Of a stretch of 35,836 nucleotides of DNA, positions 900-35,836 are shown piece by piece. The position numbers and the translations under genes are program-made. The notes under the pieces were generated by a model. It had not been told where the DNA came from. It saw only the letters and a list, made by a program, of their open reading frames with translations, and searched no databases. The DNA is taken from positions 72,923 through 108,758 of IMG/VR virus record IMGVR_UViG_3300021400_001778; one strand, written 5' to 3'. This stretch comes from a virus. Lineage: Duplodnaviria; Heunggongvirae; Uroviricota; Caudoviricetes. Position 1 is the stretch's first letter. Each line of letters starts with the position of its first letter.

Positions 900-3800
900 T
901 AATACAAATTATTTCCTTCTATTATTTTATACTTATTTATCCATAACTCCCTTTCTTTATAGTCCTTAATCCATTTACCATTTTCGCCCATCTTAAATTT
1001 TGGCGAATATTTATATGCTTCTATGATAACTAAATCGCCAGTCTTTATCTTCTGACCATTAAACAACTCTTTCTGGACTTTAACATCTAATATACTTCCG
1101 TTCGCCAGACAATAAACTTGCAAACGCGGCGAAAATGTAGTAACGCACGACATAACGTAAACTAAATTCGCAAATCTATGTTTGTCGATAATATCTATAT
1201 ATCCTAAATACTCGCTTTGGTCAGCAATTCTCGCTTTAAGCCCACGGCGCGGACAGTTCTCTTTGTAGTTTCGTTCGTAATGCCGCAGAATCGCGAACAT
1301 ATCAACGCGCATAAACGTCTTTTCTGTTCTTCTCTCGCAGTAATCCTCAAGTAATATTGCGGGAATACACAGCTTTTTCGCAGAAGTCTCTTTTACATTT
1401 TTAAACTGCTTCACATCGCCAGACTTATAAATTGTGTAAAACATATTAGCTAAATTGAGCAAAGCGTTTATCTCTCCAAACTTGCTGAAAAAATTTAGCT
1501 TTATTAATATTTTTATATGTTCTGACGTTACATCACCCTTGCATGTATTCTTAATCGCAACAAGTAAATCTGTAAAGGTATCAAAACTTTCGCCGTATAA
1601 TTGCGACAGGCTATCACCAGTATTCTTTCCGATGCTCTTTACCGACCGTAAACCTTTAACTACTGCATTTTCTTCTTTGATGAATGAGTATCCGTTTCGC
1701 GACTCTCCAAATTGGATAGGCTTTATCTTGATACCATGTTTCTTTGCGTATGTAGTTATATTTTTAGTCTTCTCGATATCACCGTCAAAAGTTTCAAGTG
1801 CCGCCGCGACCCACTCAAGCGGATAATAGTGTCTATACCACGCGGAAATATAAGCTATTGCGTGATAAGACATACTGTGAATCTTTGAAAAAGAATAATC
1901 AGAAGCATCAAGAATTGTCTGCAAAAACGGCTCAATCGTTATTTCCGCATCTTCTCTCGCGACTCCATATTCTTTTACCATTGTACTGATAAAGCGTTTT
2001 TTAATCTCTGGCAGTAACGACTCAGTTCCTTTCTTTTTCGCGATTGCTCTACGGACTACATCTGCTTCACCTTCTGAATATCCCGCGAACTTCTGTAACC
2101 ATTCGCTTATCTCTTCTTGAAAAAGTAATCTTCCAAATGTCGGGTCTAAGAAGTCTTGTAGAGGCTTTAAATCATAATCGACATATTCGCCTTCCGCGAC
2201 AGAATCTCTATAAGAAGTTCCAGACGGTCTAAGCGCGGCATTGCAAATCGCGCCAAGCATAAATAAATCTATGTCACCACGCCTTTTTATAACCTTCGCT
2301 AATGTTTCATCGGAGAAGAATCTACGGATAAACGCAAATGCCATTGGAGATTCATACTGGAAAATCATTGTTGTATCTTTACGCATATCTTTGATAACTT
2401 CAAAATCTTCCATGTTATCAAATCTCTCGCTGTCTGGTGTTGGCTTTTCGTGTCCGCAATATTTAGCAACAAGATTTATTAACTTGAGATTGTTTAAACC
2501 AAGTAAATCAAACTTTACCCAATTGTAAGCATCAAGTGATTTCATCTGTACTTGCGTTGATACATAATTTGAATTTCCAGATTTAGCAAGTCCAAGTTCG
2601 CGTTCAATATCTCTATCAGAAATAAGAATGCCGCTTGCATGAATACCAGTATTTACAACTACGCCGATTACAAGGTTAACTATTCTACAAAGTTCTGGAT
2701 ATTCATCCCACATTTCCTTCGTAATTTCATCTTTATCGCCAAGCATAGATTTGATGCCGTCTATATCTTTTAATGAATAATCCAATCCCTTTCCAACGTA
2801 TTCAATAGCTTTCCGTGCTTTCATTGTACCAAATGTAATAATTTGCGCGGCTTTCATGTTTGGCAAACCTAAATGGTCTTCAATCATAAACTTCGTGACT
2901 TTTGCTTTTGATTCATCATCATAGTCTGTGTCGATATCTGCGAGATTGACACGTTCTCTTGACATAAATCGAGAGAAAGGAAGGTCATATTTAATTGAAT
3001 CCATTTCTGTGATTCTGTTTACATATGCCAATTCTGAACCACCAACAGAACCGCGCCCGAAACCATAATTAATACCATTGGCATTCTCGTATTCTCGAAT
3101 ATGCATTTGTAAAAGCATAAAGTCTTGTGCATTGTTATCACACATAACTTCGTACTCTTCACGTAAGCGCGGCTCTATCTCTTCCCAAGTATATCTTTTA
3201 CTTGCATATGGGTGTTTTTTGTACGCTTCTACTGTTTTATCCCAAAGAACTTTTTTACCGTCTTCGTAAATCTTAGGATACTTATAGTCGCGATTTAATG
3301 TAAATTCCTCTACCATATCAGCCATACGGTTAGTATTTTCAATGGCTTCGAGATATGCAGACTCAGGTAATACACCTTGCTTCTTATATTCTCCTATCAG
3401 TTCATCAAAACTCAACATGCAAAGATTGAATTCATCTTCATCTGGATAGGATTTGCCCGCGCCTTTTTCAACAATCAACCTTGCGGCGGCATAATCGCTA
3501 TTATAGGAATGAGTATCAGTTCCCGCGATAAGCGGAATATCCAAAGACTTATGCAGAGTATAGATGTATTTATTATATTCTTTTTGCACTTCACAAATAT
3601 GATGCTGAACTTCTAAAAAACATCTTTCTTTGTTCTGGCGAAGGAAGTTTATAAATCTTTCTCTAACATCTTCGTTAGACTTTGTACCCAATAACCCACC
3701 TATGCAAGCAGTTGTAACGAGAATATTGTCACTTGTTCCGAACAATTCATCCATAGTTATGCGGGGTTGATAATACATATGCTCTTTATCAAACGATTTA

Positions 3801-8953: not shown

Positions 8954-9952
8954 TTACAAATTAAGTTCACGTTTCATCCTTACCGCATGATATCTGTATA
9001 TTGTTTTAAACTTATCTATGGCGAGTTCATTATCAAACTCCCATCCGTAAGTATTGCAAAGCATATCATTTAATTCTTTATGCTCCGCTTTATCTGTTGT
9101 CGGGTTAAGCATGATTTTAATAAATCTTTCCGCGCCGAGTGTATCGACAACGCGATTTATTAATCCGCTTTCCCACAACTTTTGTTGCGAAAAATCAGTT
9201 CCGTTTTTATCGTTAAATCGTCCTAACAGCTTATACATACTTTTCTGTATACGATGCCGCCCTTCTGCGTCTGTTGTGAAGTGTTCGACATCGCTCTTTT
9301 TAACCATTATATAAGGCACTACGCGGTCATCGACCGCTACCAAAATGCCCTTTTTATAAGTATAAATAAATTCATTTTCCTTTTGCAGTTTATATATGCT
9401 ATTTAATAATCTATCGGATGGTATCCTATCGCCAGAATTTGTGTGGATAACTCCATCCTTAATATCCGAATATCTAAAATCGGATAAAGATTTATAAGAC
9501 GCAAATATACCCTCATAAATTGAAAGCATAATTACATCATAATAATTTCTGTTATCAACATTTAAATCAATTGCGTTGCATATATATTCGCGAGTATAAG
9601 GCTTCAAGGATTCGTCCCACGAAATATAATTTGTAAATGCTTCTAAAGATAGCGCGACGCCATAACAAGGATTGTTACTCACAATCTCTTTTTCAAGTAA
9701 AAAATTAAAAAGTTTTGTGTAAACGCCACGCCCAACGTGAAACAAAGAAACAGACGTTACCTTAATTTTTTCATACATCAACTCTGCTATATCAATATCA
9801 TTAAATTCAGCGAAAGAATTATATCCACGCTTATCAGATATATTATCAATAGCTTCATTGTGCAAAAATTTTAACTCGGTTTTCGTCAATTCTGTATTAG
9901 CAATAAAATCTTTTAAATAATTATTGTACTCTTGCTTAGTTAGCTTTTTCAT
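8954..9952 (-). CDS. Integrase-fold repressor resembling SPbeta MrpR/YopR (SroF)
   Basis: Core-binding-like N-domain (FNFLL..EI...NP), IMLSIYEGI...SDI and LWESGLIN segments; no R-H-R-H-Y catalytic set recognisable. Confidence 0.6.
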   Translation of the reverse strand: MKKLTKQEYNNYLKDFIANTELTKTELKFLHNEAIDNISDKRGYNSFAEFNDIDIAELMYEKIKVTSVSLFHVGRGVYTKLFNFLLEKEIVSNNPCYGVALSLEAFTNYISWDESLKPYTREYICNAIDLNVDNRNYYDVIMLSIYEGIFASYKSLSDFRYSDIKDGVIHTNSGDRIPSDRLLNSIYKLQKENEFIYTYKKGILVAVDDRVVPYIMVKKSDVEHFTTDAEGRHRIQKSMYKLLGRFNDKNGTDFSQQKLWESGLINRVVDTLGAERFIKIMLNPTTDKAEHKELNDMLCNTYGWEFDNELAIDKFKTIYRYHAVRMKRELNL

Positions 9953-31763: not shown

Positions 31764-32072
31764 TTAATTCTTAGCCCATTCGGGCACATCATGCACATAC
31801 TGTGCATATTTCTCGGACTCTTCGCGCATTTCGCGCTCAACGAGATATAACGACTCGTCTACTTTCGCGAGATAGTCAAGTTTCCGTAACTCCTTGACTT
31901 CTGCGTCTGTAAGATACCGCTTTTCAGCGATTTTTTCCAACTGCTCTCTGCGGCGGATTCTGCGGTTGATTTCTGCGATTTTGTCAGCGAAAAGTACGTT
32001 CACATCGCAAGCGTAACTACTTTTCCACCTACGTTCATTCTTACATTTCCACTTCTTACTCGGATACTTCAT
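31764..32072 (-). CDS. Basic hypothetical protein
   Basis: 102 aa, GGAGGT RBS. Confidence 0.8.
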   Translation of the reverse strand: MKYPSKKWKCKNERRWKSSYACDVNVLFADKIAEINRRIRRREQLEKIAEKRYLTDAEVKELRKLDYLAKVDESLYLVEREMREESEKYAQYVHDVPEWAKN

Positions 32073-32084
32073 ATTAACCTCCTC

Positions 32085-32414
32085 TCAAAATACGTGTAAC
32101 TTACGAGATTTCGCATATACACAGTATACCTTATCAAATTCCTCATCATCAGACGGCTTGTTAAATATAACGCGATACGTTTCGCGTGTTCTAAACACGT
32201 AACTATGCCGCCAACCTAAAACAGCGGGAACAAAACCATCAGATTCAAGGTCGCGTATTACTTTAAGCACATCATTAGCGCTTCCAATCGCGACATAATA
32301 TTCATTCCCACCGCGAACAAAAGTCTCTAACTTGAACCGTTTGGATACCCTAAAGGGGTATCCAGAGATATCCGACCTAAAACCGAAGCAATAACGCATG
32401 TTATATTTTTTCAT
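32085..32414 (-). CDS. Hypothetical protein
   Basis: 109 aa, AGGAGG RBS. Confidence 0.8.
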   Translation of the reverse strand: MKKYNMRYCFGFRSDISGYPFRVSKRFKLETFVRGGNEYYVAIGSANDVLKVIRDLESDGFVPAVLGWRHSYVFRTRETYRVIFNKPSDDEEFDKVYCVYAKSRKLHVF

Positions 32415-32443
32415 ATTCTTCCTCCTTCCACGGCGAAGAGTGC

Positions 32444-33043
32444 TTACGCACTCTTCTTAGCCGCCTTCTTTGCCTCACGCGCCGCCTTGCGCTCAGCCTT
32501 ACGAGCCTCAACTGCCTTTGACTGCTTTGCAGTCATTTCTCCTCCTGCGAGAACTTTGGACGGGTCGAAGCAGAACGTCCACGCCCCACGCCAGTAGCCT
32601 GCGTCGAACTCAGCCCCGAAGTAGCGGCTCAGGTCAGCCCAATCGGACTTAGCCACTCTCTCTGCGAGAGAGACACGCCAGACCTTTACGGACGGGTCAT
32701 CTGTGCGAGTTGCCTGCTCGATGTTGAACTTGCAGTTCAACATGAGTCCCTTACCGTTTTCAGCGTTCGGCTTCGCCGTTGCGGTGGTTGCTTTGCTCTC
32801 AGCCTTCGGCTGTGTCTTGCGTACCCGTGTAATGCCGCCGACCTTTTCGACCTCAGCCTTCGGCTGCGCCGCCTTTGTTGCCTTGCTTTCAGCCTTCGGC
32901 TGTGCCTTCTTGGTTGCCTTTTCAGCCTTCGGCTGTTCGTCACCAACGAGTGCTTTGTACATCACGGCAGCTTCTTCGAAGCTGAATCCTGCGTTTACGA
33001 GTGCCTTAAGTGCCTGTGCCTGTTTTGCGTTGATTGTTGTCAT
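32444..33043 (-). CDS. First early gene: 199-aa Lys/Ala-rich protein with QPKAE repeats and a Trp-rich globular domain
   Basis: True start MTTINAK after AAGGAGG (the track's 299-aa version extends into non-coding RNA); stop lies in a 9-bp hairpin with GTAA loop. Confidence 0.85.
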   Translation of the reverse strand: MTTINAKQAQALKALVNAGFSFEEAAVMYKALVGDEQPKAEKATKKAQPKAESKATKAAQPKAEVEKVGGITRVRKTQPKAESKATTATAKPNAENGKGLMLNCKFNIEQATRTDDPSVKVWRVSLAERVAKSDWADLSRYFGAEFDAGYWRGAWTFCFDPSKVLAGGEMTAKQSKAVEARKAERKAAREAKKAAKKSA

Positions 33044-33089
33044 AATGTCCTCCTTCTTGCGCATACTATGCGCCTTTGATATAATATTT

Positions 33090-33728
33090 TTTGTGACCCC
33101 CTTTGTTGGGAAGCCCGTCTTGACGGATTCGAACCGCCTGTCAAGGCTTTCGCCTTGACGCCCTACCCAATGGGCAGACGGGTAGCTCTGAACGTTGGAA
33201 CGGTGTAGTTTCTTGGAAAAGGGTAACTTTAATAGACCTACCCTTGTTAGTAGTTGCAATGATGGCTTGGGTATACTTCGCCAGTTGTGCTTGCTTTTCG
33301 CCCTTTTGCCGCCCTCCTTTTGCGGCTGGCAAGTATAGCCCAAAATATGACATCATGCACTCCGCCACGCGTACTAATCCGACACTTGACCTTCCACGAA
33401 CTTGACAGAGGTAGCGTATACGCGCAAGTGTAGCCCTGCTGCGCCGACATAATAAGCCCATCATGCCTCGCTTGCTCTTACGTTTCTACGATTGCGTAGG
33501 GATAAAGCGTTCCCGTACTCCCTCGAACGTGCATATATGTATTTTTCAGATTTTACCCGTACAGACAAGCGAACTTGTACAGTCAAGTACGGAACATCCC
33601 AATTTACGTTGGGTATGGGATGGGTACAATTTACGACACCCAAAACAACTTTATACAATCATAACAACCACCTCCTTATGTACGGGAAAGAAACTACAAC
33701 CGTTCAACCGCCCGTTCGATTGAACTTG
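33090..33728 (-). ncRNA. Large (~640 nt) structured non-coding RNA or 5' leader
   Basis: Long-range stems 33198-33214/33688-33705 and 33510-33518/33680-33688, 33269-33284/33326-33341, many local hairpins, promoter upstream. Confidence 0.75.
33114..33182 (-). ncRNA. tRNA-like cloverleaf with GAAA tetraloop in place of an anticodon loop
   Basis: CCCGTCT/AGACGGG closing stem, GCCC-ATTGGGTA-GGGC, GTCAAGGC-GAAA-GCCTTGAC, GGCGG-TTCGAAT-CCGTC. Confidence 0.7.
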
Positions 33729-33733
33729 ACTAC

Positions 33734-33761
33734 ATCTTACCACGGTTTCGGTGATTGTAAA
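33734..33761 (-). promoter_or_regulatory. Promoter TTTACA-16-TAAGAT with extended -10 TG, upstream of the structured RNA
   Basis: Minus strand tttaca atcaccgaaaccgtgg taagat. Confidence 0.6.
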
Positions 33762-33938
33762 GAACAAATACATGTTTTTTAAATTCATATTGTGCGACTA
33801 TTAAATGCTTTTTTGCGTTATTGTGTACACAATTAACATATGCCAGGCATGTCGTGTGATTTTTTGGCGCGTTAGTAGTGCCTAACAGAGCTGGAACTAA
33901 ATTATCAAAAGATTTAAACTTTAATTTTTATTTTTGGT

Positions 33939-33953
33939 TATTGTCTGAATATT
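33939..33953. promoter_or_regulatory. CodY-like box
   Basis: TATTGTCTGAATATT, 3 mismatches to AATTTTCWGAAAATT; a weaker one at 34098-34112 (4 mismatches). Confidence 0.4.
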
Positions 33954-34121
33954 TAATGCTATTTCACGCCACCGTCGCGCAATATCCTAAAATAAACGCC
34001 AAAAACTTAATCATAAAATTTTTTAATTTGCTATTGACAAAACAAAATTGTAGTGCTACTGGTACATACAATTCGCACAATTTAAAACATTTTTGCTATT
34101 TGTCAGACAATATTTTGACAA

Positions 34122-34135
34122 TGTAAACGCTTACA
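34122..34135. promoter_or_regulatory. cre site (CcpA / LacI-family operator)
   Basis: TGTAAACGCTTACA matches TGWAARCGYTWNCA. Confidence 0.75.
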
Positions 34136-34157
34136 TTTTGATGTTTAAACAAGTCAA

Positions 34158-34204
34158 CCACTATATCTTGTGGTTTTAAAATATTTTTTGCCTAAATATT
34201 GTGT
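34158..34204. promoter_or_regulatory. Tandem NrdR boxes, pair 1
   Basis: CCACTATATCTTGTGG (34158) and TGCCTAAATATTGTGT (34189), 31 bp apart. Confidence 0.75.
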
Positions 34205-34364
34205 TTTGGACATAGAAAAGTAACATGTGTTACTTATTTTGAAATTGTATAGAATTGTTTGGTTTACGTCATGCATACCGTATTCAAATTGTATATGTTT
34301 GTACACAATTCAATTTTTGCGCTAAACTACGCGGATTTTCAGCGTTCAAATATGATTTTTTAAA

Positions 34365-34382
34365 AATGCATATTTATGCAAT
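34365..34382. promoter_or_regulatory. ARG box (ArgR/AhrC)
   Basis: AATGCATATTTATGCAAT matches AWTGCATRWWYATGCAWT. Confidence 0.7.
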
Positions 34383-34525
34383 TATTCATGTTAGTTAACG
34401 CAAACCTAACCGCTTCGAGTCGCGATTTTGCCCGTATTTATGCCTACTTTAGCGCATAAGGTATCTTTTGGTTTACGTTTTGGTTATGTGAATATTATGT
34501 TTTCAGATTGTTTGCCTAATTGTCA

Positions 34526-34539
34526 TGTAAGTGCTTACA
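34526..34539. promoter_or_regulatory. Second cre/LacI-like operator
   Basis: TGTAAGTGCTTACA, one change from the palindrome TGTAAGCGCTTACA. Confidence 0.55.
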
Positions 34540-34570
34540 AACAACAAACAATTTAAATACAATTAACACA

Positions 34571-34617
34571 ATTCAATATATGGTGGTTTAATAGCTGCTT
34601 ACTACTATATCTTGTGC
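34571..34617. promoter_or_regulatory. Tandem NrdR boxes, pair 2
   Basis: ATTCAATATATGGTGG (34571) and CTACTATATCTTGTGC (34602), 31 bp apart. Confidence 0.75.
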
Positions 34618-34638
34618 TTATACGCATAAGGTAGCCCC

Positions 34639-34687
34639 CGCGCGTGTGCGTGCGCGTATGCTGTGCGCGTTGCGCGTGTGTGCGCGC
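34639..34687. repeat. Alternating purine-pyrimidine (CG/TG) tract
   Basis: Runs of 23, 9 and 17 alternating bases. Confidence 0.8.
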
Positions 34688-34856
34688 CCCTCGCCCGTAA
34701 GCATAAGAAGGAAAACATATCATTTTTTATTGTGTGAAAGTCGATTTTTGCGCGTATTTATGCATACTTTAGCGCGTAAGTAAAAAATAAGCGTGCAAAT
34801 TGGGAGTGATGGAAAAATGTAAAATATATTTGACATTATGGATATTATACACAACC

Positions 34857-34907
34857 ATAAATGGAAATATACACGGAATAAATGGAATTATAACGGTATA
34901 AATGGAA
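34857..34907. repeat. Three ATAAATGGAA direct repeats at 21/20-bp spacing, next to a DnaA-box match TTATACACA (34845-34853)
   Basis: Copies at 34857, 34878, 34898. Confidence 0.75.
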
Positions 34908-34942
34908 CTCGTGTAAAACGTCATTGTGCCGTAGATGAAAAA

Positions 34943-34958
34943 TGTTTCACGTGAAACA
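34943..34958. promoter_or_regulatory. parS: parS centromere site (ParB/Spo0J)
   Basis: TGTTTCACGTGAAACA, inside a perfect 20-bp palindrome at 34941-34960. Confidence 0.92.
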
Positions 34959-34981
34959 TTGGAAAACTAACACGCCAGACT

Positions 34982-35038
34982 TTAGCACTCACATTAAGAG
35001 AGTGCTAATAATCAGCACTCGCATAGATTGAGTGCTAA
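34982..35038. promoter_or_regulatory. Two tandem CIRCE elements (HrcA operators)
   Basis: TTAGCACTC-N9-GAGTGCTAA exact at 34982-35008; TCAGCACTC-N9-GAGTGCTAA at 35012-35038. Confidence 0.95.
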
Positions 35039-35112
35039 CAATTCTTGTCTAATTTTGTTTAAACAAGTTGTTGACGTTTTGACGGACTGTCAACAGGGGG
35101 ACGTTCGGGATT

Positions 35113-35126
35113 CGAACACATGTTCG
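35113..35126. promoter_or_regulatory. Perfect Gram-positive LexA box
   Basis: CGAACACATGTTCG matches CGAACRNRYGTTCG. Confidence 0.88.
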
Positions 35127-35163
35127 GATACGGCATGGGGCGGAATGCCCCCCATTCATTCAC

Positions 35164-35555
35164 CGCGAAAATATCACTAAAACATCACGAACCCCACGAA
35201 AACCACCACGGAAAATCCCACAAAGCACCTTGCACCAACGCATAATCCCCCGAAAATTTCGCGACGGGAAAACACACAATTCCTACGCTAAAATTTACTT
35301 TAGTAAGTTTAATTTTACTAAACTTTTTGTTTACCATTCCCGCGAAAACGCAAAATCCCGCGAAAATTCAAAATTTGCCAAAAATTGCTAAAATTTCTTC
35401 ATTTTTTGTTGTTTTTGCGCGAAAAATCAATGTTTTTTGTTATTTTTGGGCGGTTTTTGTTCATTCCGAGAAATCGCCAAGAGAGGAAATGGCGCGAAAA
35501 AACAGTAATTAAGACATGCGTATTATATGCGGATTTGCGTATTTTGGCGCGAAAA
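35164..35555. repeat. Six CGCGAAAA motifs plus helically phased A/T tracts
   Basis: CGCGAAAA at 35164, 35341, 35359, 35418, 35493, 35548; tracts about every 10-11 bp from 35370 to 35458. Confidence 0.8.
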
Positions 35556-35688
35556 ATTGCGCGGCTGAGTTTTGCGGCTGAGTTCTATTTCTGGAATTCA
35601 TCGCCAAGACAGAAATTTTAACATTGCCGCCGCGGGCGGCTTATAGTTCTCTCCCGCCGAAGAAAATTAAATGCTTATACCACTTATA

Positions 35689-35836
35689 TATTATTTATAA
35701 GACAGATTATGCATATTATGAATAATATTATATTTAATGATTTATATATTATTATTTATTATATATAGATTTATATATATTATTTATGAGACCAATTATG
35801 TATATTATGATTATTATTTATAAGACCAATTATGTA
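35689..35836. repeat. Extremely AT-rich zone with three ~33-bp imperfect repeats
   Basis: TATTATTTATRAGAC.ATTATGYATATTATGA at 35689, 35778 and 35812 (last one truncated by the window end). Confidence 0.8.

Follow-up and report, generated by a model that had tools for sequence, protein, structure and literature searches.

What does a phage keep in a stretch of ~640 nt that lies directly behind an early promoter, holds no credible long open reading frame (ORF), and runs up to the first early gene? The window, i.e., the whole 35.8-kb (35,836-nt) stretch of DNA analyzed here, forms the terminal part of an IMG/VR virus record of 108.8 kb with a completeness rating of 65%; all genes of the window are encoded on the minus strand. 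A preliminary description had taken the gene-free stretch for a large ornate noncoding RNA (ncRNA), either a divergent GOLLD/ROOL member or a new class, possibly processed from the early mRNA.

Locus and host setting

The gene content of the window includes a DnaE-type polymerase, a DnaB-like helicase, a primase, and an integrase-like gene. The polymerase is 37 to 39% identical to polymerases of large Bacillus siphophages and of a Clostridioides phage-plasmid. A host among the Lachnospiraceae is suggested by strong Shine-Dalgarno (SD) sites, by promoters of the sigma-A type, and by where related DNA was found, i.e., in Lachnospiraceae genomes and in animal gut and bovine samples. The RNA belongs to a clade of large phages, or phage-plasmids, of gut and rumen Lachnospiraceae with a DnaE-type polymerase. 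On the minus strand, ~640 nt lacking a credible ORF separate the promoter (33761-33734) from a strong ribosome-binding site and the first gene, the ATG of which is at 33043:

33734..33761, minus strand: early promoter with -35 box TTTACA (TTGACA in most homologues), a 16- to 17-nt spacer, and extended -10 box TGnTAAGAT; kept in 12/12 full-length homologues
33183..33727, minus strand: large RNA body of ~545 nt, with conserved 5' and 3' parts and an exchangeable ~430-nt core (33243-33668)
32444..33043, minus strand: first early gene, 199 amino acids (aa) with QPKAE repeats; downstream of the RNA in all homologous loci, with gene order kept

The promoter of the window reads TTTACA-16-TAAGAT with a TG upstream, at the position given in the preliminary description, and transcription would start near 33727. 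The elevated GC content noted there was also recovered (0.44 in the 1-kb bin of the RNA versus 0.33 upstream), as was the lack of a credible long ORF. No ORF was conserved on either strand, the longest ORFs in 12 full-length homologues (21 to 107 aa) lay at nonhomologous positions, and indels did not occur in multiples of three, which argues against a protein-coding function. Likewise as described, the minus strand showed no terminator in the interval from the RNA to the first gene (33700-33043), which argues against a riboswitch or attenuator.

The first early protein matched no Pfam or PHROG family. Its structure model had a pLDDT of 70, with a C-terminal domain near 90; the fold found no PDB match, only weak AFDB rows and a weak likeness to a domain associated with large polyvalent proteins.

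Homologous loci

The first early gene has 46 homologues (43 to 99% identity), and the homologue set used here comprises the loci upstream of them: 20 were retrieved, 13 of which were distinct, giving 14 loci with the window. Full-length RNA comparisons were based on 12 sequences, and the 3' module was compared in 14 loci. Every retrieved locus displayed identical gene order and a gene-free stretch upstream of the first gene, and BLAST and MAFFT revealed a graded similarity of this stretch to the window across the loci. The promoter, the terminal helix P1, and the core helices were kept in the 12 full-length homologues, and the 3' module was kept in the 14 loci.

Conserved across the homologous loci were the promoter TTGACA-17-TGnTAAGAT, the first ~20 transcribed bases, and an SD-like GGAGGUG. 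The loci also had in common the block GUAAAAUCUGAAAAAUACAUA..UGCACGU, GUCAAGUGUCGG, GGAGUGC, and the 22-mer GGUCUAUUAAAGUUACCCUUUU; in the 3' region, they shared a tRNA-like cloverleaf, a CCCC-N4-GGGG hairpin, AUUAUAUCA, a GCGCA..UGCGC hairpin, and the ribosome-binding site.

No match was obtained by DNA similarity search of GenBank phages and PLSDB plasmids, by exact search of IMG/VR with the T-arm/acceptor pattern, or with the first-gene protein in IMG/VR (single sequence and profile) and GenBank phages. A metagenome scan with the first-gene profile returned three short loci only. When 27 records of related-polymerase phages were searched with the RNA by BLAST, chance-level matches only were obtained; the two close relatives are fragments in which this end is missing.

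The ~430-nt core (33243-33668) is exchangeable: L040 and L042, the closest relatives by protein, retain the 5' and 3' parts around an unrelated core. One metagenome contig (run X23) joins 33242 to 33669.

The RNA body folds into a covarying structure closed by a long terminal helix

The 639-nt stretch had a minimum free energy (MFE) of -221.6 kcal/mol and folded better than dinucleotide shuffles (z = -4.42), one of the checks named in the preliminary description; folding z scores of six homologues ranged from -1.9 to -4.9. The ends of the RNA are joined by P1, a helix of ~25 bp in three segments that brings the RNA 5' end to the bases just before the cloverleaf:

33690..33727, minus strand: P1 5' strand, pairs with 33184-33212
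33184..33212, minus strand: P1 3' strand, ends 1 to 2 nt ahead of the tRNA-like element

P1 overlaps the long-range inverted repeat 33194-33214/33688-33708, i.e., the 17-bp stem with one bulge that had been noted between segments ~470 nt apart (473 nt by our count). The sequences of both P1 strands are lineage specific, and the strands coevolve: duplexes with the own strand had energies of -28 to -38 kcal/mol (z of -4.0 to -7.4 against shuffled partners), and in a cross-pairing matrix the own strand was the best or near-best partner, ranking first within each subgroup.

For the core, RNAalifold predicted 64 consensus pairs from 12 sequences, 26 of them changed on both sides; since the 14 sequences form ~5 lineages, many of the compensatory changes are inherited and not independent. 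At the 47 pairs outside the cloverleaf, 89.3% of cells were paired versus 78.9 ± 0.9% in shuffles, and 24 pairs were doubly changed versus 15.4 ± 2.4 in shuffles; none of 500 shuffles reached either observed value. With partner columns slid, pairing of the core fell to 29 to 48%. Column pair 243/434, in the most conserved core block (33526-33556), displayed four pair types. The best-supported core helices were 33533-33524/33364-33356, a subdomain at 33490-33415 with hairpin 33467-33446, and 33344-33327/33282-33266. The first of these is the 9-bp stem said to close a ~170-nt domain, and the last is the 15-bp internal stem, both as previously described. The 15-bp helix was paired in 99 of 105 cells, and 5 of its pairs showed compensatory changes. 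Also present were the loops and repeats reported earlier, namely, a UUCG loop, a GNRA-type GAAA cap in the cloverleaf, and a repeated GUCAAG.

33526..33556, minus strand: most conserved core block, GUAAAAUCUGAAAAAUACAUA..UGCACGUU; its 3' end forms a 9- to 10-bp helix with 33356-33364
33266..33344, minus strand: 15-bp helix (33344-33327/33282-33266) with an apical CCGC/GCGG hairpin (33308-33326), the loop of which displays AAAAGGAGG
33651..33677, minus strand: SD-like AAGGAGGUG, 8 nt, mini-ORF AUG-AUU-GUA-UAA; SD-like block in 12/12 sequences

The mini-ORF of 2 to 3 codons (MIV, MIE, MGV, or MT) was found in 10 of 12 sequences. Since it is missing from two (L044 and L052), the SD-like block may be structural; its GGUG is predicted to pair with 33261-33264. 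The abundance of GGA motifs was about at chance level, and a CsrA sponge was rejected as a candidate.

A tRNA-like cloverleaf marks the 3' boundary

Immediately downstream of P1, two further elements were recognized:

33114..33182, minus strand: tRNA-like cloverleaf of 69 nt, with a 7-bp acceptor stem, a D-arm with a GG loop, a 5-bp T-arm with loop UUCGAAU, and no encoded CCA
33098..33110, minus strand: CCCC-N4-GGGG hairpin, conserved, directly after the cloverleaf

In place of an anticodon loop, the cloverleaf has a 7- to 8-bp arm capped by 3 to 4 nt, a cap size kept in 14/14 loci. Pairing of all four arms is preserved by compensatory changes: acceptor stems read CCCGUCU/AGACGGG or GCCACCG/CGGUGGC, with additional G-U variants; position 2 of the T-stem was G-U, A-U, or G-C; and the capped arm occurred as GUCAAGGC, AUCAAGGC, and CACGGGGC, each with a matching 3' strand. 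The T-loop read UUCGA[A/G/C]U across loci. In the alignment of the cloverleaf and the 3' hairpin (A3), 93.3% of cells were paired compared to 84.9% in shuffles (0/500) and 34 to 57% when slid, and nine pairs were changed on both sides. Covariation had been proposed earlier as a check on the RNA, and pairing of both core and cloverleaf far exceeded the shuffled and slid controls.

The cloverleaf is not a tRNA by the usual measures: ARAGORN called none, Rfam found none at an E value of ≤10, and there is no 7-nt anticodon loop. A tmRNA was not detected by ARAGORN or Rfam either, and both acceptor strands are local. Retention of acceptor, D, and T arms without a decoding loop is the pattern of mascRNA-type elements.

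A covariance model of the cloverleaf module (R1) scored 95 bits on the window. Its matches in 24 related phage records beside the window's own were considered as homologues and rejected, as they were genuine tRNAs only (20 to 28 bits). In L204, from a phage whose polymerase is related, R1 found a tRNA-like element with a truncated anticodon arm (1501-1572, plus strand) that ARAGORN does not call; within the tRNA array of this phage, it lies between tRNA-Thr and tRNA-Pro.

The minus strand is the structured strand

In the consensus helices, 91 G-U cells were counted versus 21 A-C cells, and MFE was lower for the sense than for the antisense strand in 12/12 sequences (alifold energies of -37.6 and -27.0, respectively), which identifies the minus strand as the structured one. 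In addition, G-U pairs of the T and acceptor stems would read C-A on the opposite strand. On the plus strand, we noted one further conserved element:

33057..33085, plus strand: invariant block TTGCGC-17-TGATATAAT, candidate antisense extended -10 promoter; conserved in 14/14 loci

As judged from its sequence, this block could drive an antisense transcript across the RNA gene. It overlaps a palindrome, GCGCATAGTATGCGC (33059-33073), and when read on the minus strand, it corresponds to an AU-rich linker and a 5' hairpin ahead of the ribosome-binding site. The same TTGCGC-17-TGATATAAT arrangement was seen on another viral contig, L075, upstream of a RepA_N leader (~9890-9935).

The RNA core accumulates without the downstream gene

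Parts of the stretch were present in 20 sequencing runs. In four metatranscriptome runs from three studies, contigs on 32000-34500 were restricted to 33241-33671, a span from which strand and RNA ends are not readable; one contig of 429 nt from an RNA run lay wholly within the RNA. The first genes and the upstream spacer had no contig coverage in these four runs. For one of the RNA runs, the sample had also been sequenced as DNA, and in that DNA run a single 6-kb contig spanned 32431-34500. Since DNA of this sample covers the flanks evenly, DNA carry-over does not explain the core-only RNA contigs. We conclude that the RNA core is expressed and accumulates without the downstream gene. The contig ends coincide with the start of the module described below and with the borders of the exchangeable core; 33241 and 33671 are therefore probably assembly-graph breaks and not RNA ends. 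Part of the RNA-library signal could stem from an antisense transcript, as the invariant plus-strand block resembles a strong promoter in that direction.

A short module is shared with IS110-family insertion sequences

The conserved 3' part of the RNA body contains a hairpin with a module that recurs beyond the phage loci:

33209..33245, minus strand: hairpin with invariant module GGUCUAUUAAAGUUACCCUUUU(CCAAGAAA); invariant in all 14 phage loci

The phage record has one copy of the module GGTCTATTAAAGTTACCCTTTT(CCAAGAAA) (33209-33241, minus strand). In Lachnospiraceae, the module is also found at the right ends of insertion sequences from several IS110-family subfamilies (L060-L197), with 32 to 33 of 33 bases identical between the phage and insertion-sequence copies. 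The match between phage RNA and insertion sequences is confined to 25 to 33 nt. A 22-mer pattern search recovered 18 IMG/VR stretches and >120 genome contigs, almost all from Lachnospiraceae, with many matches at contig ends; complete genomes held 1 to 6 copies. In genomes, the module is situated 30 to 45 nt past the stop codon of a transposase with PF01548 and PF02371 domains (IS110 family) and ~65 nt before the element end, which bears an outward-facing TTGACA, ~45 to 60 nt downstream of the module. In every insertion-sequence subfamily as well as in the phage, a variable hairpin lies ahead of the module, with the 3' strand of the hairpin reaching into the first bases of the module.

One such element, in L090 (2394-4306), is 1.9 kb long and has a ~500-nt upstream noncoding region with a variable segment, and its flanks differ among copies. 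Its left end bears TATAAT and its right end TTGACA, consistent with a junction promoter; this layout is usual for IS110 elements. In L075 (10057-11139, plus strand), the leader of a RepA_N/DUF6017 replication gene consists of an intrinsic terminator, a long hairpin, and the shared module 5 nt before the SD sequence.

The guide RNA of IS110-type elements is placed in a long noncoding region (PMC11187229). Since this region lies upstream of the transposase and the module resides in the right end, the data do not place the module within a guide RNA. No IS110 transposase was detected in the 108-kb, 65%-complete phage record, so the RNA does not lie beside a DEDD (PF01548/PF02371) recombinase within it. 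Several other assignments of the module were rejected. Some copies could encode the peptide KGNFNRP in antisense, but an in-frame stop is present in another insertion-sequence subfamily; no consistent -35/-10 promoter boxes and no stem plus U-run typical of a terminator were seen; and no known ribozyme was matched in Rfam with four insertion-sequence loci.

Comparison with known RNA families

To our knowledge, only a handful of large complex bacterial or phage RNAs of this size have been described, none with an established function. Well-known precedents for tRNA-like punctuation and for RNase P-processed phage RNAs are MALAT1/mascRNA and the C4 RNA of P1/P7, respectively. As in MALAT1/mascRNA, a cloverleaf without a decoding loop is found at the 3' boundary of a long ncRNA, placed to recruit RNase P and RNase Z. 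In contrast to that system, the setting is a bacterial phage, a terminal helix formed by the 5' and 3' ends takes the place of the triple helix next to the site, and cleavage is predicted.

Rfam 15 gave no match at gathering scores in the window and two chance-level rows at an E value of ≤10 in the 1-kb region 32900-33900. In eight homologous loci, no family was found, tRNA and tmRNA included. The models of GOLLD and ROOL matched neither at gathering score nor at an E value of ≤10 on 32900-33900 or ≤1 on eight homologous loci. Thus, the Rfam search suggested in the preliminary description turned up no known family in the window or its homologues, and of the two alternatives offered there, the new class fits and membership in GOLLD/ROOL is not supported. 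We found no published description of this RNA.

ROOL and GOLLD are large ornate RNAs that often reside in prophages beside tRNAs and whose function is unknown (PMC5737381). The RNA studied here shares with them a size class of ~550 to 650 nt, many junctions, the phage context, a gut/rumen source, an adjoining tRNA-type element, and a variable part beside conserved parts. In contrast, it has no covariance-model match at permissive thresholds, its neighbor is an anticodon-less mimic and not a tRNA, and it is fixed behind an early promoter and carries an SD-like block with a mini-ORF. The likeness is one of size class, setting, and tRNA-type neighbor, not of homology.

Bacterial Y RNAs (YrlA) bear tRNA-like domains (PMC4201824) and resemble the phage RNA as ncRNAs with a long terminal stem and a tRNA mimic; however, the phage RNA has no Rfam match, its mimic is outside the terminal helix, and it is about five times larger. 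With IS110/IS1111 ends (PMC11187229), it has in common the invariant 22- to 33-nt module after a variable hairpin, in mobile-element RNA or DNA of the same hosts. Yet the module occupies the short right end of the insertion sequences rather than their long upstream region, and no recombinase gene is near the phage RNA.

A free processed RNA versus a leader and other readings

We favor, with a probability of roughly 0.6, an undescribed class of large structured phage ncRNA that is cut from the early transcript at the tRNA-like element and acts in trans. It is filed as a new class among the large ornate phage-associated RNAs, set apart by built-in tRNA-like punctuation, by a core resembling a cassette, and by the module that insertion sequences also carry. 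Signals for a host-type RNA polymerase (TTGACA-17-TGnTAAGAT) lie immediately upstream, and the first bases of the RNA pair with those before the cloverleaf, so that the ~545-nt body is closed by a long terminal helix. The cloverleaf would be cut by RNase P on its 5' side and possibly by RNase Z on its 3' side. These cuts would free a stable, end-paired RNA from the early mRNA, and the mRNA of the first gene would then begin at, or just after, a protective structure. The freed RNA would act in trans; its most likely mode of action, at low confidence, is that of a scaffold or decoy whose displayed invariant loops, one of them being the IS110-shared module, would engage a factor of the host or of a mobile element.

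Processing from the early mRNA, raised as a possibility in the preliminary description, is plausible because a covarying tRNA-like element is located exactly at the 3' boundary of the RNA; the cleavage itself we infer. The same holds for the step from an RNA that accumulates to one that acts in trans. In the L050 group, the bases at the predicted RNase P site are U (-1) and G (+1); window-type cloverleaves have A at -1 and C at +1, which is not ideal for RNase P. RNase Z substrates lack CCA, as does the cloverleaf.

The main competing reading is that the RNA acts in cis, as a leader of the early operon, which we regard as possible but unlikely. Through its fold, such a leader would govern read-through, the stability of the mRNA, or translation of the first genes; examples of how are processive antitermination, loading of ribosomes at the SD-like block and mini-ORF, and a 5' protective structure. 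Such a leader would fit the position between early promoter and first gene with no terminator, the SD-like block (12/12) and mini-ORF (10/12), the conserved hairpin right before the ribosome-binding site, and the recurrence of the shared module in the RepA_N gene leader of L075. However, the downstream gene is missing from the RNA libraries, which contain the core; alternative terminator/antiterminator pairing was not observed; the ends are fixed, whereas the core can be exchanged; and 545 nt with a terminal helix and tRNA-like punctuation far exceed the needs of known leaders. The RNA might instead be a partner, guide, or decoy for IS110-family (bridge/seek-RNA) recombinases or for a factor binding the right-end module, given that 22 to 33 nt are invariant in all phage copies and near-identical in >120 contigs and that a variable hairpin precedes the module in phage and insertion sequences alike. 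This is improbable, as no such recombinase was found in the 108-kb, 65%-complete record, the long noncoding region for the guide RNA is upstream of the transposase and the module downstream, the rest of the RNA has no resemblance to insertion sequences, and a host factor with no link to these recombinases could bind the module. As a function, a partner or decoy by which the phage steers or blocks host mobile elements (through an IS110 recombinase or a module-binding host factor) or, alternatively, a ROOL-like RNA-only cage is similarly a long shot.

Could the functional product be the opposite strand? A plus-strand transcript from TTGCGC-17-TGATATAAT, acting as a convergent-transcription switch with the minus-strand fold being secondary, would agree with the invariance of the block in 14/14 loci, its recurrence in L075, and the lack of strand assignment of the contigs. 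We consider this very improbable: the G-U versus A-C asymmetry, the orientation of the T-loop, and the lower sense energies all favor the minus strand, an antisense role leaves the covariation unexplained, and the block also has minus-strand readings. Even less credence is due to the cloverleaf as a degenerate tRNA gene or an attP-type tRNA fragment with the remainder as spacer. It has a canonical T-arm and acceptor stem, and R1 also finds true phage tRNAs at 20 to 28 bits, but both acceptor strands covary, the capped arm stays at 3 to 4 loop bases in 14/14 loci, and the upstream 545 nt covaries and is expressed.

As a free processed RNA, it would be a bacterial-virus example of tRNA-like punctuation of a long ncRNA. 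Few such large RNAs are known, and this one is tractable owing to its defined promoter, a 3' boundary marked by a tRNA mimic, and an exchangeable core between fixed ends; further handles are its accumulation in gut and rumen metatranscriptomes and the IS110-shared module, which lends itself to pull-downs.

Between the early promoter and the contig end, a gene-free AT-rich stretch (33800-35836) contains direct repeats of 13 to 45 nt and several palindromes. A comparable gene-free stretch was present upstream of the RNA in all homologous loci.
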